The notes beneath the pieces were generated by a model, which was not told where the DNA came from, searched no databases, and worked only from the letters and a program-made list of their open reading frames with translations. From positions 637 to 64,636 of the IMG/VR virus record IMGVR_UViG_3300028228_000176: 64,000 nucleotides of DNA. One strand, given 5' to 3'. Positions 13,006-58,323 of the stretch are shown here, in pieces; the first letter of the stretch is position 1, and every line of letters starts with the position of its first letter. This DNA is from a virus (Duplodnaviria; Caudoviricetes). The translations under genes and the position numbers were made by a program.

Positions 13006-14721
13006 ATGGCTGTAACTAAAGAAATAACATATTTCAACTCTTTTCTAGTAAAGAAGGTTATTCAAAAAACTGGAGCATCTACTGGGTATCCTACTGTTAG
13101 TGACAAAGCAGCAACTTGGCCAGCTCTGCCTTGGAATCCAGAGGGGTATCCGTTGTTCCCTCTACTTGCTGACACTGATACTAGTGCAAACTCTTCTTGT
13201 TGGTACATAGAAGAATCAAGAATTAGAGGTGGGTATAATAACAAACAAATAGATTTTGGAGTAAAAGCCTACTTAACAGAAGATGAAGACAAGGCTTTGA
13301 CATTGATTAATGGTTTAATATATTCGGGGCTTTATAATCTTAGAACTGGGATAAACCAAACAAACGTATTTTCTACGGGAGAGAATATAACGAAAGAACT
13401 AGACCCTAGTTACGGAGCCATTCAAAAACTATTTGCATCGGATACAAACTTAATAATATTCCAAGAAGACAAAGTAAGTAACGCTTTAATTGACAAAGAT
13501 GCAATCTACACAGCAGATGGCAATCCTTCTCTTACAGCAACGCAACTTGTTTTAGGACAGATAAGTCAGTATTCAGGAGAATATGGCATTAGCGACAACC
13601 CAGAGTCGTTTGCTTTCAAAGGATATAGAATGTATTTCACCGACAAAAATAGAGGTGCTGTAATGAGGTTATCTAGAGATGGTCTTACCGAGATTAGTTC
13701 TTATGGAATGAGGGATTATTTTAGAGATAAAATGTCTGACATTTCAAAAACCCCTCAAGCAACAGAGATAGAATTGAATTTAGCAGAGCCTCAAAACCAA
13801 GTATTAGGAAATGTGTTAAGTTTGTTAGATTCTACTTCAAACTTATTTAGTGATATAGAATATGGTATGACTATTTTTGGTGGGGCAATTAGCCCTAACG
13901 GTTTGTACGTTATTGATATAAATTCAAGCAATAGTACTGTAACATTAAATGCAGACATTGTTAGCTTTAACAATTCTCCCACTACAACTCAACTTTACAA
14001 GTCTAAGATAGATAGAATAGTAGGGTCTTACGACAATTACAATGATAAGTACGTAGTGTCAATGCAGAATGTTAATGCTTCTGAATACAACACATTATCT
14101 TTTAATGAATCAAATAATGGATGGACTAGCTTTTGGGACTACGACCCAAGTTTTGGTGGTACTTTAAATAACACATACTACACTTGTAAGTTAGACGGAA
14201 TATGGAAACATTACGAAGAATCAGTGATTAATAATAATAGAGGGAATTTCTATGGTACTTACTACCCAACATTGGTTCAATTGTCTTTCAATCCAAACGT
14301 TTCTTTTTCTAAAAACTTCCAAACAGTGAACTACGAAGGAAGTAACGGATGGCAAGTAGATTCATTCCTATCAGACCCAACGGGAGCTTTGCTACCAAGC
14401 AGTTTGAATAATAGCTACAAAGACTCAACATCTTCTGTTTTAAGTTACAACGAAGGGGCTTATATTGAAGCAGGAACTACTTATAGAGCTGGCTTTAACT
14501 TGAGAGAAAATAAATACTATGCTAATTTAGTTAATGTTGGAACAACAGCAAATGGGGATGGGTTAATTTTACAAGGTATGCCAGGACAAGTGCTCCCAAA
14601 TACTAGCGTTAGCGGAATAAAAGGATTCTTTGCGACAGTAACAATAAGCACTGACAAAACGACAGATATAGGTGGGCAGAAAACATTGTTTGCAGTGTCA
14701 TCAAATTACACAAAATCTTAA
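13006..14721 (+). CDS. Tail stabilization/nozzle-like protein (beta-propeller)
   Basis: Contains YGISDNPESFA, YFTDKNRGAVMRLS and GWTSFWDY motifs. Confidence 0.6.
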   Translation: MAVTKEITYFNSFLVKKVIQKTGASTGYPTVSDKAATWPALPWNPEGYPLFPLLADTDTSANSSCWYIEESRIRGGYNNKQIDFGVKAYLTEDEDKALTLINGLIYSGLYNLRTGINQTNVFSTGENITKELDPSYGAIQKLFASDTNLIIFQEDKVSNALIDKDAIYTADGNPSLTATQLVLGQISQYSGEYGISDNPESFAFKGYRMYFTDKNRGAVMRLSRDGLTEISSYGMRDYFRDKMSDISKTPQATEIELNLAEPQNQVLGNVLSLLDSTSNLFSDIEYGMTIFGGAISPNGLYVIDINSSNSTVTLNADIVSFNNSPTTTQLYKSKIDRIVGSYDNYNDKYVVSMQNVNASEYNTLSFNESNNGWTSFWDYDPSFGGTLNNTYYTCKLDGIWKHYEESVINNNRGNFYGTYYPTLVQLSFNPNVSFSKNFQTVNYEGSNGWQVDSFLSDPTGALLPSSLNNSYKDSTSSVLSYNEGAYIEAGTTYRAGFNLRENKYYANLVNVGTTANGDGLILQGMPGQVLPNTSVSGIKGFFATVTISTDKTTDIGGQKTLFAVSSNYTKS

Positions 14722-26025: not shown

Positions 26026-26962
26026 TTATTGATTAAAGATTATCCCTTTAAATATATGCTCAATTACATCTACTGTCCAGCCGTTTCCAAGCATTTTATA
26101 ACGTTGGCTATTGCTTACGTGGTTTGTGTAATTGTCTGGCACAGTTTGCAACCTCTCGCATTCAATAGGCGATAATTTTCTAAATCCATTTATAAAAACT
26201 GCGTAATTATCTTTTTGAACAGTTGTGATAGTGTTTGTTTTGCCATCGTATCTAATTTCTATTCTTTGTTTTGTTAAGCCTTTAGTTTTCATTTTTCCGT
26301 CTTGTCTTTTGCCAGCAACAATATAACGCCCACGCATTGCACCGCAAAAAACCAATTGCCTTCTACTTTTTTAAAGTATTGGTTAAGGTTTCCTCCTTTC
26401 GCATAATTAGCATCTATGCAATAAGACTTATTTCGGTCAACAATGCCGTTTTCAATAATATCTGCTAAATAAATTTCTTTATTTTTGGTGGTATTACGCT
26501 TGGTATGTTAGTCCAATAAAGCCTAACTCTATTTTGAGCAGAAACCAAAGAACTATTTATAATTACAGGTTCGCAACCTAAATAACTGCTAATAACATCT
26601 TGGTATTCCTTTTTCATTTTTACATTCTCCATAAGGAAATACTTTGGTTTCAATTCGTTTTTAAGCCTAACAAACTCAAAAAACAATTTACTTCTTTCAT
26701 CTTGGAAGTTCAGTTGTTTCCCTGCAAAACTAAACCCTTGACATGGGCTACCCCCAATTAGCAAATCAATTTCGTGGTTAAGCATTCCCTTGTTTACAAA
26801 CTCAACGCTTCCTAATTGTATAGTATTTGGATAGTTTTCCATAGTTACCTTTATTGCGTATTTATCTATCTCGCTTGCAAAATACTTATCTACTTTAATC
26901 CCTAATTTATCTAGGGCAATTTGTCCGCAACTCATTCCATCGAATAAACTTAATACATTCAT
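26026..26962 (-). CDS. C5-cytosine DNA methyltransferase (frameshifted; ORFs 26465-26962 and 26026-26355)
   Basis: Motifs LSLFDGMSCG, GGSPCQGFS, ENV, QNRVR and C-terminal YKMLGNGW. Confidence 0.85.
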
Positions 26963-27374: not shown

Positions 27375-30143
27375 TTATTTAACTTCACAAGAGCCACCTC
27401 CTCCACAAGCAATCTCTCCTGCTAAATTAGTATCGTCATCCACCTCTATTATGTTAATCAAATCAACATCAACTAAATGCTTCATTCTTTCGTGATAGTC
27501 AGCTTCCGAGATGTCCTCAAATGGGGCTTGGATATAAGTTCCTCCATCATAAGGAAGTACAGACAACCCATTGTAATGGTTTCTGTTAGCCCACATCCAC
27601 TCGCCTGCTCTATCCCATTCGTCTGCTTTCAAAGAAACAGTGGCTGAAACATTATGTGTATTAGAACCTTTCCTATGTCCTGGAACCACCCACTCTTGAG
27701 CAACTTTTTTAATTCTTTCTAACAAATCAAAAGGAGACTCATCTCTCAAGATAGAACCTTTAGGCGCTTTTTGAGGTATACTAATTACAGCCGTATCGTG
27801 TGGTCTGAAATATTCGTCTTCGACTAACTCTGGATGATTTTTACTCAAGTACTGGTACATTGATTCATTCTTCCCTACACGTATTCTACGGATGTAATAA
27901 TCGTTATGCCAAGCGTGAATACCAGAAGAAGTTCCAAGAGCAAGAGAGGTCGTCCCAGCAGGCTTTACTGTTGTTGTTCTAGCCGCTGCATTAATGCCGA
28001 TTAATTTTGCAACTCTAGAGTTCTCTTTGTTCACAACCTCGGCTGCTTCTGTCATATCGTAATTAAGGACTGCTCCAGAACCAATCCCAGTCATTGATAC
28101 ACCAATTAAAGCGTCTTTCTCAGTAGTTTCTCTCCATATGCTTCTTAGGTAATGGAACTCTGTATATCCCGCTTGTAATGTACCTATGAATGCAGCGTGT
28201 TTAACTCTGTTATTTAGGTCTTCTTGAGACTCAATGTTAGATGCGTTTACTTCGCATAGGTTACAAAACTGAAAAGGTCTTAAAGCAATTTCGCAGTTAT
28301 GAACAAGAACTCCGCTAGAGTTAAGATAGTTGTCGTCGTCTGTCTTAGTTAGTATATAAAAGTTTTCGTTATCTTCAACGGTGAGGTCATAAACATCTTC
28401 TTTTTCTCCAGTGTAAACTAATTCCGTAACATAAACAGCTTCTGATAAATCAACGTTTATATCTTCTTTAGCATACGAGTCGTATTCTTCTTTGTGTTTG
28501 CGGTTCCAATCAATTAGAGTTTTTTCTATTTTGTCGGTACTCCAACCCCATCTTTTCCCGTTTGCCGCTATACTATTCCTAGACCCTATCAATTGACGGT
28601 GTCTCTTGTTTAGTTTGTGAACTGGATTTCCCATCCCATTCATATTCAATGCCCTCTTTTTTAAGTTGTCCTTCGCTAGTATCAACTCAAGATTTTCTAG
28701 TTTATCATTTGTTGAGTCTTCGTCAATATGGTCTATGTTTCTGCTGTTGTTATAACTTCCATTGTGAAACTCCCACATCATTCTATACTGCTTAGAATAG
28801 CCATTGGATTTAGAGTTTATATGTCGGTATGACTTTTTATTATTCTTGTTGCTAAAAGAAAAGAATTTCTCCAGCTCCAATCCTACAGAATCTTTTGCTT
28901 CAACCCAACCTCCTGAAGGTAATGCTAACCTATGGTCGTCAGTACACTTAAACTTTGATCCATCCGAAAGACAAACCTCAACAGTTTCTTTGTAACCATT
29001 GTGATAAGCAACCGCTTGTTTTATCTCTGACTTCCAACCTTGGAATTTATTGTCATAAACAAATATTTTATTCGTATATTTTTCTCTTGCTGAATAAACA
29101 GGAAACGACTCCTTCCCTTGAGACTCTTCCGCCAACTGAGCTATTGTAACTCCGTTTCTTCCATCAGCAGTAGCGACTATTGTATCTCCTGAAAAACAAC
29201 AAGGATTTGTTCCCCAATCTTTGTCGTTGTTAAAATAAATTCCTGGCTCCCCAGCATTGCTAAGTTCAACACGTTTCCATAAATTCATAAAGAACTCTTC
29301 AGTAACTTTGTGTCTCATTAATACAGCAGAGTTGTTTGCTCTACCTCTTTGCGGATTTGATTCCCACCAACTGCCAGACTTACAACTAATCATATCATCA
29401 TCATCAGCAGAAAACAAAGCAATTAATGCAGCTCTTCTTATGCCTCCAGCTAAGACTGCATCGGCAATATGACAAACAATATCGTGAGTTTCTACGGTAG
29501 TTAAATTCTCTCCATCTTTTTTAGAGTCAAGAACTGCTGTGATATTGAACACGCATTCTTTTAATGGCTGAGGGCCTGGAGCTTTGCCGCCTGACGTAAC
29601 TAGCTGTGCACCCTTTGGTCTAATGTCTGAGTAATCAAAGTCAACTTTAGAGTTTCTTTTGTCACCCATATAAGACTTCATTAATACTTTTATGGCATCG
29701 GCCCAGCCTTCAATTGAATCTCCAATTAAAAACCTTTTAGTTCTTTTAGAATGAGGTTTGCTTATAGAAGGTAGTTGGCTAACGTGATGATTTTGCACTG
29801 AGTACCCTACTCCAGTTCCACCAAGAAGTAGAAACATAATCTCATTGAAGGAATCGACACTATCAATAGGTAGGTATGCGCAATTATAAACTCTGTTAGG
29901 AGATATCTCTATCGACTTACCTCCAAATTGTAACGACCTCATTGAAGGTAGAATTTTTTTGTCGTATACTAACTCGTAAGCTTCGTCAATTTGTTTTTCT
30001 AATTTTGGGTACTTCTTAACGTGCATTGCTTTGTTGCGGTCAACAAGTTCTGACCACGTTTCTCTTCTGTTTAACTCTGGCACAAATTTAGCATATTTCA
30101 TGTATACTGTAATATCTGACAGGATTTTATTTGATTTCTCCAT
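27375..30143 (-). CDS. nrdJ: Class II (adenosylcobalamin-dependent) ribonucleotide reductase containing an intein
   Basis: Motifs PSMRSLQFGG, NPC/CEI, TTVKPAGT and C-terminal ACGGGGSCE. No beta subunit gene is present. Confidence 0.85.
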   Translation of the reverse strand: MEKSNKILSDITVYMKYAKFVPELNRRETWSELVDRNKAMHVKKYPKLEKQIDEAYELVYDKKILPSMRSLQFGGKSIEISPNRVYNCAYLPIDSVDSFNEIMFLLLGGTGVGYSVQNHHVSQLPSISKPHSKRTKRFLIGDSIEGWADAIKVLMKSYMGDKRNSKVDFDYSDIRPKGAQLVTSGGKAPGPQPLKECVFNITAVLDSKKDGENLTTVETHDIVCHIADAVLAGGIRRAALIALFSADDDDMISCKSGSWWESNPQRGRANNSAVLMRHKVTEEFFMNLWKRVELSNAGEPGIYFNNDKDWGTNPCCFSGDTIVATADGRNGVTIAQLAEESQGKESFPVYSAREKYTNKIFVYDNKFQGWKSEIKQAVAYHNGYKETVEVCLSDGSKFKCTDDHRLALPSGGWVEAKDSVGLELEKFFSFSNKNNKKSYRHINSKSNGYSKQYRMMWEFHNGSYNNSRNIDHIDEDSTNDKLENLELILAKDNLKKRALNMNGMGNPVHKLNKRHRQLIGSRNSIAANGKRWGWSTDKIEKTLIDWNRKHKEEYDSYAKEDINVDLSEAVYVTELVYTGEKEDVYDLTVEDNENFYILTKTDDDNYLNSSGVLVHNCEIALRPFQFCNLCEVNASNIESQEDLNNRVKHAAFIGTLQAGYTEFHYLRSIWRETTEKDALIGVSMTGIGSGAVLNYDMTEAAEVVNKENSRVAKLIGINAAARTTTVKPAGTTSLALGTSSGIHAWHNDYYIRRIRVGKNESMYQYLSKNHPELVEDEYFRPHDTAVISIPQKAPKGSILRDESPFDLLERIKKVAQEWVVPGHRKGSNTHNVSATVSLKADEWDRAGEWMWANRNHYNGLSVLPYDGGTYIQAPFEDISEADYHERMKHLVDVDLINIIEVDDDTNLAGEIACGGGGSCEVK
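28296..29198 (-). mobile_element. Intein (301 aa) with an HNH homing endonuclease
   Basis: Begins CFSGDT after GTNPC, has CTDDHR (block B) and IDHIDEDSTNDKLENL (HNH), and ends VYDLTVED...VLVHN before Cys. Confidence 0.9.
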
Positions 30144-41076: not shown

Positions 41077-41730
41077 TTATTTTCTTATTGATACATAAGC
41101 TGCATCTATTAAATTCATTAGTGAACTCTTAAAAGCTATTGACGAAGACTTACCTCCAATACTCCATACATTCAACTCGCTAATAGTATACTCCCTATCG
41201 TAAGTTTTCCAATCGTATATCGTGTAGTAATAATCCCCAAATCTTACAATCCATTCAACGCTACTCTTCTCTCCTTCCTCAAACGTCTGCGTGGGCTGTC
41301 CTAGCGCCTCTACTAACTCAAAATACTTAACACCTCTTAGTGTATCAACCTTGCTGCTACCCTTCCACATATCGCTTGTAATTTCGTCCTGTAATATAGT
41401 CTTTATATTGAAAATATAATTATTGATATTACATAGCTCAGGGTTCGTTTCTACAATGGTTTCAATATCGTGTCTCATCTCTCTATCTGTCTCACACAAG
41501 TCTTTCATTTTTGAAATGTTATTTATCACTGAAGAATGGTTCCTACTAAGGTAAACACCCATCATTTTTAATGTTGACCTTGTGTATGTTCTTGCTAAGG
41601 TACAAAACATTTGCCTGGCTGTAACTAATTCTCTACTTCTGTTTGGCGATAGTACTTCGTTTTTATTAAGACCGTAGTATTTACATACTATTGTCATTAT
41701 GCTGTCTAATGATTCTAATTCTCTACTCAT
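41077..41730 (-). CDS. Protein with a DnaA C-terminal HTH-like domain fused to an unknown domain
   Basis: SRELVTARQMFCTLAR...LSRNHSSVI resembles DnaA domain IV. Confidence 0.65.
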   Translation of the reverse strand: MSRELESLDSIMTIVCKYYGLNKNEVLSPNRSRELVTARQMFCTLARTYTRSTLKMMGVYLSRNHSSVINNISKMKDLCETDREMRHDIETIVETNPELCNINNYIFNIKTILQDEITSDMWKGSSKVDTLRGVKYFELVEALGQPTQTFEEGEKSSVEWIVRFGDYYYTIYDWKTYDREYTISELNVWSIGGKSSSIAFKSSLMNLIDAAYVSIRK

Positions 41731-41745
41731 AATTTTGTTTTTATT

Positions 41746-41982
41746 TTAAAAAGGTAATTTGTTTTTCGTGTATCCATCATAATGAATCTTTATCCCGCAG
41801 AATAGGAAGTGATGCCTATTGTTTTTAGCTCCATTGAAAGATATAGAATGATGCTTTGCATATTTAGATGTTGTTTTTAATTCTAATTCTTGTTCAATTA
41901 AATGAACTAAGTTTTCTAATTCTCTAGGTGTTGGTTTGTGGTTACAAATGTCTATAATCACCGCCTTTATTGATTCTGTCAT
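41746..41982 (-). CDS. Hypothetical protein
   Basis: 78 aa; its ATG abuts the attI-like site. Confidence 0.45.
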   Translation of the reverse strand: MTESIKAVIIDICNHKPTPRELENLVHLIEQELELKTTSKYAKHHSISFNGAKNNRHHFLFCGIKIHYDGYTKNKLPF

Positions 41983-42022
41983 TGGTTCAATTTTTTGAAT
42001 GTTTCTTATAACGTTGTTACAG
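41983..42022 (+). other. attI-like site, copy 2, heading the seven-cassette array
   Basis: 30-bp motif followed by gtt and the core GTTACAG (predicted crossover G^TT at 42016/42017). Confidence 0.7.
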
Positions 42023-42028
42023 GCAATA

Positions 42029-42931
42029 CTACATTAGTCCTCCGAAAATGTGAGCAATTACATTTACAGTCCATCCATTGCCGAGCATCTTATACCTATC
42101 TGTATTTGATACTCCTTCTGTATATTTATCAGGTACGGTTTGTAATCTCTCACATTCAACAACTGTAAGTCTATGTATATTTTCATCTCTGTCTTTTGTG
42201 AAAGTAGATTTTTGTCCTTTGTGCATATTTGAAGTTAAGCAACTTGCTTTTCCATCAGCATACCACAACTGTTCTAATCTTGTTTTATTTCCAAATTTAC
42301 CAAGCAACCAGTTTGGGTAATTATTATGAAACATAGGTGTTTGTAAAATATCATATACTACTGTTTTATTCTCTTTTGGTAATTCATTTAAAGGAATATT
42401 AGTCCAATAAATTCTCGGTCTGTTGTGTGCTGAAAATAGATTTGAGTTTATTCGTATTGGCTCAACTCCCAACGCTTCTGTAATAATATCTTCCCACTCT
42501 TTTTTCATTACTACATTTTCAAGTAAAAAGTATCTTGGTTTTACTTCATTCAGAACTCTTACAAATTCCCAAAACAAACCACTTTTACCATCAAATCCTT
42601 TCCCATTTCCAAAAGAACTAAAACTTTGGCAAGGACTACCACCGAAAAGCAAATCTATTTTTGGCAAATCACTACCTTTTAATTCCGTAACGTTTCCAAT
42701 TTGTTTTGTGTTTGGAAAGTTTTTTTGTGTTATAAAAATTGCTTTCTCATCAATCTCCGAAGCAAAGTAGTTATTCACCTTTAACCCTGCTTTCTGCAAA
42801 GCTAATTGTCCACAACTCATCCCATCAAAAAGGGATAGTGCGTTAATCCCGTACTGCCTGTAACACGTGCTATAATCAATAGCGGATTCTGTACTATCCG
42901 AAAGTTTCTGCTGTTTATTATCTTTTGTCAT
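42029..42931 (-). CDS. Cassette 1: C5-cytosine DNA methyltransferase (probable start MTKDNK, inside the attC)
   Basis: Motifs LSLFDGMSCG, GGSPCQ, ENV and YKMLGNGW. Confidence 0.85.
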   Translation of the reverse strand: MTKDNKQQKLSDSTESAIDYSTCYRQYGINALSLFDGMSCGQLALQKAGLKVNNYFASEIDEKAIFITQKNFPNTKQIGNVTELKGSDLPKIDLLFGGSPCQSFSSFGNGKGFDGKSGLFWEFVRVLNEVKPRYFLLENVVMKKEWEDIITEALGVEPIRINSNLFSAHNRPRIYWTNIPLNELPKENKTVVYDILQTPMFHNNYPNWLLGKFGNKTRLEQLWYADGKASCLTSNMHKGQKSTFTKDRDENIHRLTVVECERLQTVPDKYTEGVSNTDRYKMLGNGWTVNVIAHIFGGLM

Positions 42932-42986
42932 AAATTTAAAGTTTTGTGTTATTAATCCGCTACTACTCATAGCACCATCGTTAGCG
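42858..42986 (+). repeat. attC-like site 1
   Basis: CTGTAAC-ac-GTGCTAT..TAGCGGATT ... AATCCGCTA..ATAGCAC-catc-GTTAGCG. Confidence 0.8.
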
Positions 42987-43316
42987 GTTATTAAGGTAGT
43001 CCCATAATTTACCACTATCAGAAAAATCAATATTCTTTCCTTTATCTGTAATCATTCCATCTTTATATTTTACTCCAAAATCCAATTCAAAACAAAAATA
43101 TTCAATCCAACTTTGACCGTGTTCGCAAAGTTCTAAGTCATTATTCTCAACTTGTAAAACTTTCATCAAAGCGTTATTTATAAGATGATTTTCGGGTAAT
43201 AAATTTGCTTCAAAAGCATTTGTAAATACTTCCGATAATTTTTTAGCAAATTCATTATCATATTCATATTGTTTTCTTAATGCTTCAATGCTTTCAATAA
43301 ATAATTCTCGTGTCAT
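42981..43316 (-). CDS. Cassette 2: hypothetical protein
   Basis: 111 aa; the TAA stop lies within the core GTTA. Confidence 0.7.
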   Translation of the reverse strand: MTRELFIESIEALRKQYEYDNEFAKKLSEVFTNAFEANLLPENHLINNALMKVLQVENNDLELCEHGQSWIEYFCFELDFGVKYKDGMITDKGKNIDFSDSGKLWDYLNNR

Positions 43317-43334
43317 AATTTTTAATTAAACAAC

Positions 43335-43430
43335 CGCTAACACACGGTATAGTTAAAAAGCCTATTAAAATTTGTATTTGAATTGCAAGGTAGTGGTTAG
43401 GCTTTCAAACCATACCGCAATTCGTTAGGT
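43335..43430 (+). repeat. attC-like site 2
   Basis: CGCTAAC-aca-CGGTAT..AAAGCCTA ... TAGGCTTT..ATACCG-caattc-GTTAGGT. Confidence 0.8.
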
Positions 43431-43985
43431 GTAATATTCACTAAGGCAAATGCTATTATCAACCTCATTGCCAAAAACCGCCCAGCCTTTTCGATCACGT
43501 CTTGCAAACATTTCCAGTCGGGGTTCTTCGCTTACCGTTTCAATTAAGTCTTGGAAAAATTCAGGCTTTTTGCTATGTCGTTTTTGCCTTTTGTGTTCCC
43601 ACCAAGTACTATCTATCCTTTTTACTTTCGGCATCTTACCACGCCTTGCAAGTATCAAAAACTCGGTCGTAGGGCAGTAAACCCCTCCTTGCCCTGTACC
43701 CATAGGTTTTTTGCACCAAGTTAATGTTTGGCAATACTTCAACCCCCACGCACTTAATACGGCAAAAGCATCAGGTAAATATTTTTGAGTAGTCCATAAG
43801 TAAACCTCACAGTTACCATCACAAAGGCTTTTTACTGGTAGTGCCTTTATATCTTCTACCGTCATCCATTCGTAAGGTAGTGGTGCAGGTTTATTTGCTT
43901 CTCCTTGCACCAAAGCCTTTTTACTTCCGCTACCCCAAATGCCGTATTTCCAAGGCGGGTCTATTACTATCGTTTTATATTTCAT
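43425..43985 (-). CDS. Cassette 3: MT-A70-family adenine methyltransferase
   Basis: Motifs IDPPW, YLWTT, HSKKP and LEMFAR..GW..FGNE. Confidence 0.85.
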   Translation of the reverse strand: MKYKTIVIDPPWKYGIWGSGSKKALVQGEANKPAPLPYEWMTVEDIKALPVKSLCDGNCEVYLWTTQKYLPDAFAVLSAWGLKYCQTLTWCKKPMGTGQGGVYCPTTEFLILARRGKMPKVKRIDSTWWEHKRQKRHSKKPEFFQDLIETVSEEPRLEMFARRDRKGWAVFGNEVDNSICLSEYYT

Positions 43986-44014
43986 CTTTCGTTATTTTAA
44001 TCCGTTCATACTAC

Positions 44015-44069
44015 ACCTAACACTGTATAAAAGCCATAGAAAAAACGGCTCATATACTAAACGTTAGTA
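44015..44069 (+). repeat. attC-like site 3
   Basis: ACCTAAC-act-GTATAaaAGCC..GGCTcaTATAC-taaac-GTTAGTA. Confidence 0.8.
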
Positions 44070-44817
44070 ACAATTATTTTTTTGCCCCACTCTTGCGTGA
44101 CCAATCTCTACGGCTTTTTCTGATATGTCGCAACCTATAAAATTTCTATTTAAGTCTTTGCAAACTTCTGCCGTTGTAAAAGAGCCACCGTAAAAATCAG
44201 CTACTAAATCACCTTTATTACTACTTGCTTTTATTATTCGTTCAAGTAGTGTTTTTGGCTTTTGTGTTGCGTATCCTGTATAGTCTTTGTGTTGTGAACT
44301 TAACATAGGTTTTAAATCATCCCACCAATCAATAGGTAAAGATTTGTCGTAATTATAAGTAACTCCGTTTAATACTTTTTATAAGAACCTCCGTTTTTGT
44401 TATCAATATAAAGCTCATCTAAATTAAATTTATACTCTTTAGTTTTAGAGTACCAAAATATATTGTCGTGCTTATTGCTAATACTTTTTTGCTTTTACCT
44501 CCGCTTCTGTAACACCAAATTATTTCATTCAAAATCTATCATAACCAAATACATCATCCAAAATACACCTTACCCAGTGGCTTATCTTTGTGTCCATTTG
44601 TAAATATATACTTCCAGTATCTTTTAAAATACGGTGCATTTCTTTTATTCTTGGTATGTAGTGTTCTTCTATTATTTCTCGTTTAGGTTTTAAAATCTTG
44701 GTAGTCTTTGAATTTTCTACCTGTTCCATAAAGTATATCGCAGTAAATTAAATCTACTGTACTATCTTTTATTTCTGCCATTAACTCTAAATTATCACTT
44801 AATCTTATATCAATCAT
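44064..44817 (-). CDS. Cassette 4: beta-class N6A/N4C DNA methyltransferase (frameshifted)
   Basis: Motifs VDLIYCDILY, LKDTGSIY, YATQKP and VADFYGGSFTT; the stop lies in the core GTTA. Confidence 0.75.
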
Positions 44818-44876
44818 CTTTATAAATATTTTAATTCGTACCTCATTAATTTGCCAACGCTCTGAAAAATAACAGT

Positions 44877-44932
44877 AACTAACAATGTATAAAAGCCATA
44901 GAAAAAACGGCTCTTATACCCAACCGTTAGCC
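44877..44932 (+). repeat. attC-like site 4 (interior nearly identical to site 3)
   Basis: AACTAAC-aat-GTATAAAAGCCATAGAAAAAACGGCTCTTATAC-ccaacc-GTTAGCC. Confidence 0.8.
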
Positions 44933-45571
44933 ACAAGCTGCTACATTATCGCTTTTAATGAAGTTTCCCCATTGTTCAGCCATAGCTTTTGCAATTCCGC
45001 TAAAAGTTTTACTGCTTTCCTTTTGGCTTATGTTCTTAAATTGATATTTCTGCCCTCGTTTTTTGCCCCCTGTATTACTTGGTAAGTACGGCTTATATTC
45101 GCTTACTATTTTGGTTGGGCTTAATAGTGGTAAATTTTTAATCCACAGCAGAGTTCTTTTACTATAAGGGTGTCCGTATTCATAAGGTTGCACCGCTTGG
45201 CTTTGTTTAGGCAATCCAACTACTTTTAACGATGTTGGGTTCTCAACAGCAATATAAGGTATAGGAGCGTTCAATAATTTCATAAACAAATCCTTCGCTT
45301 CCATTGCTTTATTAAATCTTTCTTGGCTTAAATTTCCTGCTGTTGGGTACATCCATCTTGCACCAGCTCTACTAATATAAGTGCAAGGTGGGTGCGCTAT
45401 CATAAGGTCATATTTACCACTATACGCTTCTACAACTGCATCACCTACAATATGCCATTCAGGTTTACCACGACTACATTCTTGCATATCGCAACTATAA
45501 GCCTCAAATCCTATTTCTCGGAAAGCCTTACAAACTTCTTGGCTCTCCTCACAAGCTATTAATATTTTCAT
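44927..45571 (-). CDS. Cassette 5: short cytosine-methyltransferase-like protein
   Basis: Motifs ILIACEES, AHPPCT, VENP, KRTLLW and GIAKAMAEQW; the stop lies in the core GTTA. Confidence 0.7.
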   Translation of the reverse strand: MKILIACEESQEVCKAFREIGFEAYSCDMQECSRGKPEWHIVGDAVVEAYSGKYDLMIAHPPCTYISRAGARWMYPTAGNLSQERFNKAMEAKDLFMKLLNAPIPYIAVENPTSLKVVGLPKQSQAVQPYEYGHPYSKRTLLWIKNLPLLSPTKIVSEYKPYLPSNTGGKKRGQKYQFKNISQKESSKTFSGIAKAMAEQWGNFIKSDNVAACG

Positions 45572-45609
45572 TCTATTTAATTTTAGTTCTTAATTTACCA
45601 CAGCCAGAT

Positions 45610-45672
45610 GGCTAACACGGTATATAAAACAGCTTCCTATCGTCAGCCGATTTCATATACAAACCGTTAGGC
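45610..45672 (+). repeat. attC-like site 5
   Basis: GGCTAAC-acg-GTATATAAAA ... TTTCATATAC-aaacc-GTTAGGC. Confidence 0.8.
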
Positions 45673-45712
45673 ACAATATTTTATTAATTTTTGCCAACGC
45701 TCTTTTGGTTTT

Positions 45713-46513
45713 TCAAACCAATTGTGGTATTTGCTCTCGTAAGAATAAATAAACCTCTTCCTGTGTTATATAAGGTGTAGAAATCACATTGCTTCTATCC
45801 CCGTAATAATCTTCAAATTTATCATTGAATATTTGTTTTATTGTTGGGATTAAAGTTTTATCTTCAATTACTATCTTATAGTTTCTTAATGTTTGTTTTT
45901 CATTAAGCACCTTCCACACCTTGCTCCCCATCCTGCATATCCTAAAATCTTCTTGCAATGGTAAATATTTTTTACTCCTTTTATCATCCGCAACAACTAA
46001 AATGCTATTTAATTTAAACTGTTTTCTTTTATTTAGCTTGCCACTTACTGGTCTTTTGTAAATATTCAAACAGCATCGTAATTCCCTGTCAGTATATACT
46101 CTATTCCCCAAATCTTCACTATGTATTAAATCAAACTTAAATAAAGAGCGTGTTTTGTTTAGTAGTTTTATGCTCCCAATAAAAGCTATGTAATCTCCTT
46201 GCTCAACTGCTTTATTGTAAAAACTTCTGAATAAGTTGCCACTATCACCAAATGGGGGGTTTCCAATAACACACCTACCTTTAAAGTATGGCAAATCTAA
46301 TTCAAGGTAGTTCTTTTGTTCAATGTTTTCTGCTTCTGGTTCAATATCAAATGCAAGGTAGTTGTTATCTAAATATGGTAAAAACACTCCTGCTCCTGCA
46401 CTTGGTTCAAGCCATTCAGTTATGTTTTCAACTCCAATTACTTCTTTTGTTTTCTTTACACAATACTCTGCTAAATCAGAAGGTGTGTAGTATTTGTCTA
46501 AATTTATTTTCAT
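45713..46513 (-). CDS. Cassette 6: gamma-class N6-adenine DNA methyltransferase
   Basis: Motifs YYTP, LEPSAGAG and GNPPF. Confidence 0.8.
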   Translation of the reverse strand: MKINLDKYYTPSDLAEYCVKKTKEVIGVENITEWLEPSAGAGVFLPYLDNNYLAFDIEPEAENIEQKNYLELDLPYFKGRCVIGNPPFGDSGNLFRSFYNKAVEQGDYIAFIGSIKLLNKTRSLFKFDLIHSEDLGNRVYTDRELRCCLNIYKRPVSGKLNKRKQFKLNSILVVADDKRSKKYLPLQEDFRICRMGSKVWKVLNEKQTLRNYKIVIEDKTLIPTIKQIFNDKFEDYYGDRSNVISTPYITQEEVYLFLREQIPQLV

Positions 46514-46568
46514 ATTCTTATATTATTAAATTAAAAAAATCCCTCCCTAAAAATTAAAAAATACAGAT

Positions 46569-46632
46569 GCCTAACACTGTGTCATACGTAAGTTTGTGAA
46601 AAACAAACCAACGCATACACTTAACGTTATGC
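46569..46632 (+). repeat. attC-like site 6
   Basis: GCCTAAC-act-GTGT..CGT..GTTTG/CAAAC..ACG..ACAC-ttaac-GTTATGC. Confidence 0.75.
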
Positions 46633-46636
46633 ACCA

Positions 46637-46846
46637 TTAAAGTGCTTCGAACTCAATTTTGTGGTTAAATGAATCACCATTACCGCTTGCATGAATTGCC
46701 CATAAATTACCTTGTTTATCCATACCTTCGGCATAAGTTCCGTCAGTTAGTGTAATATCAAGTTCACAATATTCATGTAACCACTCTTGCATAGTCTGCT
46801 CATTATCGTTGTGAGCATATTCTGTATTCCAAATAAATGTTTCCAT
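46637..46846 (-). CDS. Cassette 7: hypothetical protein (probable start METFIW)
   Basis: Acidic 69-aa ORF between terminal inverted repeats that match at 14 of 15 bp. Confidence 0.65.
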   Translation of the reverse strand: METFIWNTEYAHNDNEQTMQEWLHEYCELDITLTDGTYAEGMDKQGNLWAIHASGNGDSFNHKIEFEAL

Positions 46847-46871
46847 AGTTAAATTAATTAAAATTAACGGT

Positions 46872-46938
46872 GCATAACAACACCTATAAATCATATTTTT
46901 CGTTCCTCAAAATCCGCTTCATAGCCAAACCGTTAGGT
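46872..46938 (+). repeat. attC-like site 7 (end of the array)
   Basis: GCATAAC-aacac-CTATAAA ... TTCATAG-ccaaacc-GTTAGGT. Confidence 0.7.
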
Positions 46939-46996
46939 GTAATATTAAAAAAGGCACTGTGCTGTGCCAAATAATACCTTGTTTTGTGTTTATTTA

Positions 46997-47308
46997 TTAA
47001 TATTTGTTTCCAAGTTGAACCATTGATTCATCCCTTCCATGTAAGCCCTTTCTTTTCTCTCCCGTATACATCAAGTCTCCATTGTGAACCAAGTTCGTTA
47101 AAGCTCTCCTAATGGATGTTATTGGTGTTTTTAGGAACGCATCAAGAGTTCCTAAGACAGACGCAGATGTAGTAAACATTTTCCCCTTTGTTGTTAAAGC
47201 CGATTGAGCGTAATTCATAGCTTCCATTATCACCTGCTTTTGAGTTAATGCTTTCTTTTTGTATTCCTTTAACTTTTCTCCGCTTTCGTTTGTTGTGTTA
47301 TAATACAT
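46997..47308 (-). CDS. Putative winged-helix DNA-binding protein
   Basis: PITSIRRALTNLV helix followed by a beta-wing. Confidence 0.5.
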   Translation of the reverse strand: MYYNTTNESGEKLKEYKKKALTQKQVIMEAMNYAQSALTTKGKMFTTSASVLGTLDAFLKTPITSIRRALTNLVHNGDLMYTGEKRKGLHGRDESMVQLGNKY

Positions 47309-47476
47309 AGTTATATATTTTTAATTTGTTTAATTGCTTCAGACCTTAATTCGTCTGCTGAAGTTTTACCGTTTAATTTTTCATAAGAGTGTATCCAATC
47401 CAGGACTTTAAAAACTTGGTCGTGACTTTCACAAATTCTTATCTTATTAACGATGTTGTTGTATTCTATTTGATTC

Positions 47477-47734
47477 CTACCTCTTCGCATTGTCTATGTT
47501 TTCGTTAATAACTTCCGTTAGTTCTTCGTAATTAACGCAAGACAAAAAAGACTTTGCGTACAATTCAACTAAATCAAAATCCTCAGTTTTGTTTTTAAAA
47601 AGAGATTCTCTAGTAATTTGCTGAATGTCGTTTGAATTTACTTTGTCTTTAAATTCTCGAAACCTTAGTATGTCAGTCCATACGCACCACGTTTCGTAAT
47701 TAAGGTGCTCGATGTTAGCTCTTACTTCTTCCAT
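47477..47734 (-). CDS. Hypothetical protein
   Basis: 85-aa ORF. Confidence 0.5.
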   Translation of the reverse strand: MEEVRANIEHLNYETWCVWTDILRFREFKDKVNSNDIQQITRESLFKNKTEDFDLVELYAKSFLSCVNYEELTEVINENIDNAKR

Positions 47735-51533: not shown

Positions 51534-52221
51534 AATTTTTTAAATTTAATTTTATACTTTTTTTGTTCGAGGCAAAGATAGTACAAAAGAAATGTAATTG
51601 ATTCAATTATTAGACTAACGGCTAAATATCTTCGACCAATGATATAATTTTGTCGACAAACGACGTTTTGGTCCTTCGTTAGTAAATTATAGTACTATGT
51701 AATGCACAGTAATGACAAACGTAATGGAATGGAGTATTACCTGCATTGGGGCCTTCATAAAGTATATTAAAGTGAATTAATATAACATAAACAGAAAATA
51801 CAACTTGTATAAACATACCAAGGTAGACGTTTGGGCTGTTATTATAACAAGGCAAACAAGACATAAAACAATAGACATGCTAGCCAGGGAATGAAGCAGC
51901 CCGGAAACTTAGATATGTTAACAGGTTTTACAACTTCAGTAACAGTAAAAAGTGCTGGTTAATTAGTAGGGTTAAAAGTTAGTCAGGAAGGTAGTTTGAG
52001 TATCCCCTCCCTCAGCCCTGTCATACCGTACGTTACAAAGCATCACTTAAAGTATTACTTTAGGTAAAAGGTAGATAGTATGGAGGAAAAAGGTGAATAT
52101 ATTGGTGTAATATATAAAAAGGTAAAAATAATATTCCTTTTTTTGTAAAACACTATGGGGGGTTTGATTTGGAAAACGTTTTCGGTTTTAGTTTGCGTAT
52201 TGTTTAGCGTAGTATAACCCC

Positions 52222-56784: not shown

Positions 56785-58323
56785 ATGTCTAACGGAATCG
56801 TTAAGAATCTAAACTTCGGAGACGAAGGTAAAAATAAAGTGTTTGAGGGTATCTCAAAGTTAACACAAGCCGTTAGTTCCACATTAGGAGCTAGCGGTAA
56901 GTGTGTAATGCTAGAGGACGGCTCAGGCAAACCATTAATTACAAAGGATGGTGTAACAGTGGCTAATGCAGTTATACTCTTAGACCCAGTAGAAAATATG
57001 GGTGCAACGCTGTTAAAAGAAGCGGCAAGGCAAACAGTTATTGAAGCAGGCGACGGAACAACAACAGCTACGGTATTAGCACACGCAATACTAGAAGAGG
57101 CTTTTAAAAACAAAAACTATAACTCAAGAGAGATTCGCAATGGTATAAATTCTGCCGTTGACAAAGTAGTTACATACTTAGAAAGTATCTCACATAGCGT
57201 CACTGGTTCTATGTTAACTGAAGTTGCTACAATATCATCTAACAATGACGTAGAGCTTGGAGCTTTAATTGCTAAGGCTTTTGAAGACGTTGGCGAGAAT
57301 GGTGTAGTTAGTATGGAAATATCTAACGACGAAGAAACATCAGTAGACATTGTAGATGGCGCTTCTATTGATAAGGGGTTAAAGAATGACCACTTTATTA
57401 ATAACAAAGAAAAAGGTACTTGCGAACTTAACAATCCACTTGTATTAATTGTAGAAAGCAAAATACCTAATGTAAGAAAAGTTCAAGGAATTTTAGAATA
57501 CGTTATTAAGAATAACAAAGAATTACTTATTATTGGAGAAGCAGATGAACAGTTAGTGACTGCTTTATCAATGAATGTAAATAAAGGTAACATCAAAGCC
57601 AATATTATTGATTCCCCAGACTTTGGAATTAATAGGAAAGAAACGCTTCAAGATTTTGCTGCCTTAACTGGCGCTACAGTGATTAACGAAGACTTGGGTG
57701 ACGATATAGACCTAATTGATGTTAGCCACTTAGGTACGTGCTTAAAAGCCGTTACAACAAGAGAAGATACTGTCATTCAAGTTGAAGGCACTAACGATGC
57801 TGTTGTTGGTTTAATTAAGCAAATAAAAAAGCAGATTAAAGAAACAAAGATTAACGGAAAGAAGCACCAATTAGAAAGAAGGCTATCAAGGCTTGCTGGA
57901 AAGGTTGGTGTAATAAAAGTTGGGGCTAATTCAGAGGTTGAACTCAAAGAAAAAAGCGATAGAGTTGAAGATGCAATATGTGCAACTAAAGCAGCTATAA
58001 AAGAAGGTATTGTTCCAGGAGGAGGAATTGCTTTACTCAACGCTAGTACGATTGTTTTAGGCTTAAATGCAGGTGAAGACATTTTGCTAAAAGCTATTCA
58101 GTCTCCATTCAATGTTATTATGAAAAATGCAGGGATGGAAGACTTTGAAAAACCAACCGAAGAAGGTGTAGGATATGATGTAGTAACAGGTAAAATGGTG
58201 GAGATGATTAAGTTTGGAATTATAGACCCACTACTCGTAACTAAAAGTGCTTTGAAGAATGCTGCATCTGTAGCCAATACTATTCTTGCAACTGATTGTG
58301 TAATTAATAATCTAAGAGCATGA
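56785..58323 (+). CDS. groEL: Chaperonin GroEL
   Basis: Motifs ITKDGVTVA, AGDGTTTATVLA, GIVPGGG and GIIDP. Confidence 0.95.
   Translation: MSNGIVKNLNFGDEGKNKVFEGISKLTQAVSSTLGASGKCVMLEDGSGKPLITKDGVTVANAVILLDPVENMGATLLKEAARQTVIEAGDGTTTATVLAHAILEEAFKNKNYNSREIRNGINSAVDKVVTYLESISHSVTGSMLTEVATISSNNDVELGALIAKAFEDVGENGVVSMEISNDEETSVDIVDGASIDKGLKNDHFINNKEKGTCELNNPLVLIVESKIPNVRKVQGILEYVIKNNKELLIIGEADEQLVTALSMNVNKGNIKANIIDSPDFGINRKETLQDFAALTGATVINEDLGDDIDLIDVSHLGTCLKAVTTREDTVIQVEGTNDAVVGLIKQIKKQIKETKINGKKHQLERRLSRLAGKVGVIKVGANSEVELKEKSDRVEDAICATKAAIKEGIVPGGGIALLNASTIVLGLNAGEDILLKAIQSPFNVIMKNAGMEDFEKPTEEGVGYDVVTGKMVEMIKFGIIDPLLVTKSALKNAASVANTILATDCVINNLRA

Follow-up and report, generated by a model that had tools for sequence, protein, structure and literature searches.

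An integrase-less array of integron-type sites with antisense cassette genes in a relative of Cellulophaga, Flavobacterium and Polaribacter phages

We analyzed a stretch of 64,000 nucleotides (hereafter the window) of the IMG/VR virus record IMGVR_UViG_3300028228_000176. This 64,636-bp record is complete, with terminal repeats, the window omits just 636 of its bases, and the closest cultured relatives of the phage by DNA are Cellulophaga, Flavobacterium and Polaribacter phages. Positions 42009-46935 carry an array of eight integron-type sites (S0 to S7; nnnnTAACA-hairpin-CGTTAnnnn) with seven cassettes between them (Table 1). All seven cassettes are antisense to the sites, and an organization with the gene on the top strand and the site 3′ of it was encountered in none of them. 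The array is surrounded by a − strand arm (25321-51243) that includes genes for a ribonucleotide reductase with an intein, a primase-helicase, an ERF protein and a PDDEXK exonuclease. Every open reading frame (ORF) of the range 42016-45666, the one covered by a first-pass annotation of this DNA, lies on the − strand like this replication arm, and the cassette genes are indeed co-directional with it, as that annotation had stated. It had also counted seven genes in this range, all on the − strand; the strand is borne out, but the seven ORFs amount to only five cassette genes because the N6_N4 DNA methyltransferase of cassette 4 (44064-44817) is split into three ORFs.

On the + strand, S1 to S7 each consist of four variable bases, TAACA, a stem-loop, CGTTA and four further variable bases, with cores of 49-123 nt, and the TAAC and GTTA boxes are present in all eight sites. 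S1 to S5 were located inside the range 42016-45666 by sequence reading and by a pattern search. In the window, this search gave seven matches for 0.96 expected, a number that none of 100 shuffles reached; four of the seven fall in the array, all on the + strand. The sites of the array are far beyond chance. Across six of the seven cassettes, the right box of one site and the left box of the following site are exact reverse complements of each other over 8 nt, and across the seventh over 6 nt; the pair formed by S0 (GTTACAGG) and the left box of S1 (CCTGTAAC) is likewise reverse-complementary. The left end in Polaribacter phage P12002L (CCGTTGTTAGGCACAAT) is similar to S0. When folded as single-strand DNA, six of the seven sites S1 to S7 give the expected hairpin on at least one strand, while S7 folds weakly; the arms of the S1 hairpin are at 42867-42888 and 42954-42975. 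A scan of positions 41500-47500 against Rfam, with E-values up to 1, gave no match. With eight sites within 4.9 kb and no integrase, the array is a cluster of attC sites lacking an integrase (CALIN).

Table 1. Sites and cassettes of the array (window coordinates)
Feature	Position	Strand	Content
S0	42009-42023	+	Left end of the array; hairpin-less TAAC-GTT-GTTA-CAGG, attI-like or collapsed attC; GTTA at 42016-42019
Cassette 1	42017..42980	-	C5 cytosine DNA methyltransferase, 42029-42931, start ATG 42931; PF00145 1.7e-44, phrog_116; site S1, core 42861-42983, 65-nt loop
Cassette 2	42981..43424	-	111-aa protein of unknown function, 42981-43316; phrog_28377 (unknown function); site S2, core 43338-43427, hairpin folded; flanks GTTAGCGG..CCGCTAAC
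Cassette 3	43425..44063	-	MT-A70 family DNA methyltransferase, 43425-43985; PF05063 4.5e-22, phrog_359; site S3, core 44018-44066, folded; flanks GTTAGGTG..CACCTAAC
Cassette 4	44064..44926	-	N6_N4 DNA methyltransferase in three ORFs, 44064-44306, 44529-44729, 44683-44817; PF01555 on two fragments; site S4, core 44880-44929
Cassette 5	44927..45666	-	214-aa DNA methyltransferase-like protein, 44927-45571; phrog_757 'DNA methyltransferase' 2.3e-50; site S5, core 45613-45669
Cassette 6	45667..46626	-	266-aa protein, 45713-46513, N-terminal adenine-methylase-like region; phrog_5172, phrog_799; site S6, folded; flanks GTTAGGCA..TGCCTAAC
S6	core 46572-46629	+	Beyond the range of the first-pass annotation
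Cassette 7	46627..46932	-	Small ORF, 46637-46894, likely start ATG 46846, no family match; site S7; flanks GTTATGCA..TGCATAAC
S7	core 46875-46935	+	Right end of the array; beyond the range of the first-pass annotation

The site pattern has matches in at least 120 stretches each of viral contigs and of bacterial genomes, the bacterial matches listed being mostly from Bacteroidota (Saprospiraceae, Flavobacteriales, Cyclobacteriaceae and Pontibacter); these loci were gathered with one sub-pattern (GTATA/TATAC stems). A relaxed finder detected 274 sites in 1.06 Mb (viral loci plus window), compared to 16.7 in shuffles. Two other tools were rejected: a first finder (TAAC/GTTA plus a 6-bp stem, G-T pairs allowed) was unspecific, with 1031 matches compared to 552 in shuffles, and a covariance model (R1, 73 aligned sites) was dropped because RNAalifold, given 3′ arms that MAFFT had misaligned, found no base pairs. 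None of the 73 aligned sites departs from TAAC and GTTA, TAACA and CGTTA being fixed by the collecting pattern in 67 of these 73 rows. The median core length is 57 nt in viral and 61 nt in bacterial sites; attC sites are roughly 57-141 nt long. An asymmetric spacer, with 2 nt after TAACA and 4 nt before CGTTA, is conserved in 104 of the 274 sites. Furthermore, the 4 nt that follow GTTA are the reverse complement of the 4 nt that precede the next TAAC in 84 of 141 consecutive pairs, whereas the controls reach 8 of 272 (the two flanks of a single site) and 47 of 2000 (randomly drawn pairs). This complementarity across genes is the mark of cassettes going through a circular intermediate with one reconstituted site. 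Taken alone, it fits either polarity and is silent on which of the two boxes is cut.

The first-pass annotation had placed the array on the + strand, and this strand is the 'top' one according to the reading direction of integrase-adjacent arrays, the breakpoints at CG|TTA and the better folding of the complement. In four Bacteroidota loci (L250, L251, L252 and L253), a tyrosine recombinase gene directly adjoins the array and points the same way as TAACA..CGTTA. Two of these loci have a G|TTA shortly past the stop codon of the recombinase gene, 5 nt behind it in L252 and about 25 nt in L250, and the next nucleotides are those of the first cassette's left box in reverse complement (6 nt in L252, GTTACCACAC with GTGTGGTAAC; 5 nt in L250, GTTATAGCC with GGCTATAAC). 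Therefore, these arrays begin with a hairpin-less attI and each of their cassettes ends with a site, as in integrons. All three recombinase-adjacent arrays whose ORFs are listed have their genes in sense orientation. The motif CGTTGTTA of S0 was considered as a general attI signature and discarded, since the chromosomal arrays lack it in their attI regions.

When different contigs are compared, their homology ends 13 times at the right box and five times at the left box. All five left-box breaks are right ends, where the same gene is accompanied by a different hairpin, and no left end falls at a left box. Whole cassettes are also shared from box to box by otherwise unrelated loci (L083 and the window, 99.6%; L010 and L114, 88.6%; L084 and L106, 90.8%). 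In the first of these pairs, 44921-45677 of the window is 99.6% identical over 758 nt to L083, with which it has nothing else in common, and the shared piece takes in S5, the hairpin 5′ of the gene, and leaves out S4, the hairpin at its stop codon. In 216 of 246 viral and 164 of 196 bacterial sites, the better fold is that of the complement of TAACA..CGTTA (median difference, -1.6 kcal/mol), and the same is true of all seven window sites. In integrons, strand selectivity has been linked to the recombined bottom strand being the more stable one, with cleavage between A and C of AAC in R′ (Nivina 2016, PMC5027507). Taken together, the complementarity across genes, the breakpoints, the shared cassettes and the metagenome joints described below place the crossover at CG|TTA. 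Each hairpin thus belongs to the gene on its left and lies 5′ of that gene. The first-pass annotation had assigned the hairpins in this way, and the cassette shared with L083, the 13 right-box breakpoints and the start of cassette 1 inside S1 agree with it.

The antisense orientation of the genes, which had also been proposed from the window alone, holds with this independently fixed polarity and is widespread. Orientations were tallied by locus for 120 viral and 120 bacterial loci among the matches listed. The genes are antisense in 107 viral loci, sense in four and tied in nine, whereas in bacteria 87 loci are sense, 19 antisense and 14 tied; the comparison with homologous repeats of chromosomes that had been suggested thus gives mostly sense genes in bacteria. 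For boundary-verified cassettes, the counts are 75 antisense, three sense and one without ORF in viruses (n = 79) compared to 37 sense and four antisense in bacteria (n = 41). Beside the integrase, where only bacterial sites were counted, the left-hand neighbors of sites are 23 sense and two antisense, and the right-hand ones 20 sense and three antisense. Among the bacterial loci scored as antisense, many are short metagenome-bin contigs that may derive from phages. Judging from these sequences, the inversion appears to be a property of the whole phage family. It extends to P12002L, where the boxes are the same, the genes antisense and the left end S0-like. Methylase-bearing CALINs have already been published for phages: 17 CALINs were found among 10,705 phage genomes, and P12002L was described as carrying two methyltransferase cassettes and two sites 'with divergent directions' (Qi 2023, PMC9892861). 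In the literature searched, we found no report of a systematic inversion; only the study of Qi deals with phage CALINs, and its supplements may give the orientations of the P12002L sites.

The array varies in natural populations. It is contained in 20 public DNA runs, and no RNA run is among the listed runs containing it. Contigs of four metagenome runs were examined: flank depth was 44-75 (three runs) and array depth about 6-25. They contain joints between S0 and S4 (42015->44926), between S0 and S5 (42015->45666) and, in three runs, between S3 and S7 (44061->46931), each with 4-6 shared letters. A less clean S0-S7 joint (42020->46931) was also found, and loose contig ends carry other cassette-like sequence after S0. 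Array parts without contig cover in some runs were not counted as evidence.

The first-pass annotation had further claimed that the cassette genes use the sites as start and stop signals. The stop part stands: the four − strand stops at 42981, 43425, 44064 and 44927 are formed, as read in the sequence, by the TTA of a GTTA box, whereas the fifth intact gene (45713-46513, cassette 6) stops 44 nt short of its box. Such GTTA stops are common in the family, being found for 36 of 93 antisense right-hand neighbors and at 75 of 268 viral sites. The start part holds for only one of the seven window cassettes and is rare in the family. This one is cassette 1, for which the loop start had been correctly deduced: no in-frame ATG, GTG or TTG lies between the TAAC box (42861) and methylase motif I, and the Pfam methylase domain begins at residue 63 of the ORF. 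The in-frame candidates are ATG 42931 and ATG 42970, both inside S1, and TTG 43030, which lies past S1 in the neighboring gene. ATG 42931 is in the 65-nt loop of S1, directly behind the motif ACAAAACTTTAAATTT. This motif followed by ATG is common to two phage loci, L012 and L027, where it precedes unrelated genes and where the frame runs from the loop ATG through the hairpin arm and the box into the gene; a third phage locus has a similar loop-start arrangement ahead of a methylase. Across the family, a candidate start inside a site was found for at most nine of 103 left-hand genes. A start inside the site is thus a recurring but rare design.

Some observations on individual sites can be added. 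In long-loop sites, the loop motif ACAAAACTTTAAATT is followed by ATG (window 42932-42956; L012 3685-3712; L027 11287-11305), and in these three loci the first 20-30 codons of unrelated proteins come from the recombination site itself. In P12002L (L256, 5895-6104), a site-like unit of about 200 nt, with TAACA..CGTTA and matching stems, contains the whole annotated 50-aa ORF gp41 in its loop. Cellulophaga phage phi12:1 (L001) possesses a single full site, right of gp6 (2752-2815), besides degenerate ones (1380-1440 and 1890-1920), namely a hairpin with GTTGG for GTTAG and a box pair without hairpin; its gp6 reads past its GTTA box in another frame.

No candidate for PF00589 was found in the complete 64,636-bp genome, and a Pfam scan of 63 ORFs gave no recombinase. 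Of the recombinases beside the chromosomal arrays, the two scanned, those of L250 and L252, match NF040815 ('tyrosine recombinase/integron integrase') with 212-237 bits and TIGR02249 with about 210-214 bits; the NF040815 cut-off of 220 is passed by one of three proteins (237.5). In the L250-L253 chromosomes (Saprospiraceae, Rufibacter and others), the co-directional recombinase beside the array measures 402-589 aa. A recombinase of this Xer/IntI-like type is also encoded within an array of at least 13 sites in a viral contig of 169.7 kb (L257, G008:C1:114494-117961; with L258). It is 42% identical to the L252 enzyme (E = 3e-65), and its gene shares the strand of the cassette genes and comes immediately after a TAA|CG box, i.e. 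at the transcript-distal end of the neighboring cassette. The L257 array may be a complete phage-borne integron of the inverted kind. PF00589 matched one of five large viral contigs, these records being fragments in which absence is uninformative. A P12002L attC was recombined with attI1 by IntI1, through its bottom strand only (Qi 2023, PMC9892861). As for integrons of the phylum, IntegronFinder 2.0 gave only one complete integron in Bacteroidetes proper, and a 2021 review counts Bacteroidota among the phyla with integrons. The Bacteroidota lineage of arrays with a co-directional recombinase seems to be little described.

The explanation that we favor, and regard as probable, is an integrase-less integron-type array (CALIN) with inverted genes, located in the early leftward arm of a virulent flavobacterial phage. 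On the + strand, a cassette begins with the TTA of one CG|TTA box, ends with the CG of the following one and comprises one − strand gene with its own folded site 5′ of the gene. Cassettes are gained, lost and exchanged by site-specific crossover at G|TTA, which would be catalyzed in trans by an Xer/IntI-like tyrosine recombinase provided by the Bacteroidota host or by a co-infecting phage encoding one. Since the phage genes are inverted relative to the polarity of the sites, the better-folding and presumably recombined strand would be the coding strand. In the mRNA, a hairpin would directly follow the stop codon of the upstream neighbor gene, and the invariant GTTA could serve as TAA stop. Expression would come from read-through of the phage transcript instead of from a cassette promoter (Pc). 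The Bacteroidota -7 motif TAnnTTTG occurs in none of the cassette leaders, a result that concerns this motif only and on which the lack of Pc proposed in the first-pass annotation would have to rest; on the − strand of the arm it occurs 17 times, compared to 12.2 +/- 3.4 in shuffles, the nearest intergenic copies being at 51580 and 51723, at the head of the arm. The lack of leader motifs fits read-through expression. Entry of new cassettes at the transcript-distal end is compatible with the three S0 joints and with the integrase at the distal array end in L257. The cargo, mainly orphan DNA methyltransferases, would constitute a shuffled anti-restriction set.

Three other explanations were weighed against this one. 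The closest to it keeps the integron but with ordinary polarity: the opposite strand would be recombined, the genes would be sense, and each hairpin would lie 3′ of its own gene with the stop codon in the R″ box, as in canonical cassettes. Read on the − strand, a unit made of gene, C-TAA-CG, hairpin and TGTTAG does resemble a canonical cassette with its stop in RYYYAAC, the boxes are near-symmetric, the complementarity across genes suits both polarities, and five of the 18 breakpoints are at the left box. Nevertheless, we judge this polarity very improbable: the cassette shared at 99.6% contains the hairpin 5′ of its gene and not the one at the stop, the right box has 13 breakpoints while no left end falls at the left box, the integrase-adjacent arrays run TAACA..CGTTA away from a G|TTA attI with sense genes, and a left-box crossover would split the cassette 1 gene in two. 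Somewhat less improbable, but still unlikely, is that the sites are regulatory stem-loops (terminators, or processing or stabilizing hairpins) and that the genes are shuffled by homologous or annealing recombination through ERF and the exonuclease, in the way proposed for the PeSL cassettes of T4-type phages. The phage indeed encodes ERF and a PDDEXK exonuclease and no site-specific recombinase, the orientation of the sites relative to transcription is fixed in phages, hairpins come right after stop codons, and the transcribed strand is the better folder. However, bacterial copies beside a recombinase sit in the opposite orientation to the genes, a fixed crossover point, rather than homology, explains the 4-6 variable nt that co-vary across genes, the junctions have only 4-6 nt in common, and a site of a related phage is a substrate of IntI1 (Qi 2023). 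A regulatory role may exist on top of recombination. Finally, the sites are short, AT-rich, intergenic palindromes, as would be expected from chance or from a small non-autonomous transposable repeat (MITE/REP-like) inserted between genes. This reading is refuted by the shuffles (0 of 100 reaching the count; 274 sites compared to 16.7) and by the complementarity of flanks (8 of 272 for the flanks of one site, 84 of 141 across genes), which is the opposite of insertion with target duplication, and retains almost no probability.

Several points nevertheless weigh against the inverted integron-type array. The phage itself encodes no recombinase, and it is by analogy that a Bacteroidota enzyme would act on its sites. 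The array-adjacent recombinases, bacterial and phage-borne, score below the curated TIGR02249 cut-off (155-214 bits compared to 265), and they match this model in two stretches that leave its positions ~181-240 unmatched, a segment that is presumably the place of the IntI-specific insertion; because of these scores and of this unmatched segment, the bacterial enzymes are classed here as Xer/IntI-like and not as integron integrases. Window-type sites have a 3 x 5 nt central spacer and extra unpaired bases on the R′ side, with no bulged bases near L″, where the canonical extrahelical bases, the other strand criterion of Nivina 2016 and the one suggested in the first-pass annotation, are not evident. 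The five of 18 breakpoints at the left box imply that the same gene can carry different hairpins, as do the methylases of the window and of phi12:1. The locus tallies describe the GTATA/TATAC subfamily only, since a single sub-pattern was used to collect the loci, and the sites of one array are not independent of each other. The short sides of the metagenome joints are just 24-28 letters long, and such joints can arise from repeats or from other organisms. Lastly, ERF and the PDDEXK exonuclease of the phage could contribute recombination at repeats.

Like integron arrays and CALINs in the IntegronFinder sense, the window array consists of cassettes that each hold a single gene and are all oriented alike, and between them lie imperfect palindromes of 49-123 nt with AAC/GTT outer boxes (anatomy as in Nivina 2016, PMC5027507). 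It also shares with them the G|TT crossover, cassette starts complementary to their own inner box, the better folding of one strand and the absence of integrase in the element. Unlike canonical integrons, its genes are on the strand that matches the recombined 'bottom' strand, with the site 5′ of the gene, it has no recognizable Pc or attI, and its carrier is a virulent phage. The P12002L CALIN has the same site family and cargo; however, the systematic inversion, the link with Bacteroidota chromosomes and the scale in uncultivated phages are not encountered in the accessible text of Qi 2023 (PMC9892861). The same holds, within the accessible parts of the literature searched, for the contrast with host arrays of the same site type and for the loop-borne start. 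The Bacteroidota arrays L250-L253 have an identical type of site, the same spacer asymmetry and the G|TTA crossover, but differ from the window by an integrase, an attI and genes sense to the sites. This arrangement is resembled by the 'inverted integrase' integrons of Treponema and others. In T4-type phages, PeSL (promoter-early stem-loop) cassettes, reportedly described by Arbiol, Comeau, Krisch and colleagues in 2010, are said to flank small early genes in hypervariable regions, with shuffling, to carry a promoter and to recombine by homology. Unlike in PeSLs, no promoter motif was found in the window array, and its junctions are box-precise with cassette-specific complementary flanks.

The integron rule is that strand-selective recombination sets promoterless genes in sense orientation behind Pc. 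The arrays described here form a large natural set of cassettes that consistently breaks this rule, and does so in phages but not in bacteria with the same type of site. If this holds, it would provide a testable case for the interplay of cassette orientation, transcription and strand folding, would indicate that lytic phages keep methyltransferases and unknown small early genes, which are candidate anti-defense genes, as shuffled libraries, and would point to an under-described Bacteroidota integron lineage whose Xer-like integrase is co-directional with the array. The cultured relatives, Cellulophaga phage phi12:1 and Polaribacter phage P12002L, make the system experimentally tractable. More tentatively, and with some doubt on our part, Bacteroidota phages could keep their own pool of integron cassettes, mirror-wise to that of their hosts, with the same sites and recombinase family. 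In a strongly transcribed early operon, the recombinogenic strand would then coincide with the coding (non-template) strand, with each site 5′ of its gene, and a subclass of sites might have evolved into a portable translation start made of a leader, an ATG and about 25 codons in the loop. If so, anti-restriction genes would be shuffled at a high rate within phage populations, and cassettes crossing between host and phage would arrive unexpressed, which would keep the libraries of defense and counter-defense apart.

Methyltransferases are encoded by five of the seven window cassettes, and DNA-modification enzymes represent 13 of the 78 proteins of verified viral cassettes. The N6_N4 methylase of cassette 4 is 75.6% identical to gp6 of phi12:1 and, at the DNA level, 84.7% identical to the P12002L methylase. 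A contig of run X3 that covers 44038-44863 differs from the window by five 1-nt indels in this cassette, whose ORF breaks may come from decay in this strain or from assembly errors at homopolymers. Beyond S7 on its right (46926-46956), the sequence has 84% identity with the 3′ end of the MT-A70 cassette, box included (43418-43448), and looks like a remnant of an earlier cassette at the right border of the array. Two copies of the 14-mer TTTGCCAACGCTCT are present, one in the cassette 4 leader (44850-44863) and the other in the 3′ untranslated tail of cassette 6 (45690-45703), with a near copy in the gp6 leader of phi12:1.

Outside the array, a second C5 cytosine methyltransferase is encoded in two ORFs, corresponding to its N-terminal (26465-26962) and C-terminal (26026-26355) parts. 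The intein of the ribonucleotide reductase gene (27375-30143) contains an HNH endonuclease. The phage also encodes a chaperonin of the GroEL type (56785-58323) and a protein with a crAss-type muzzle domain (13006-14721).

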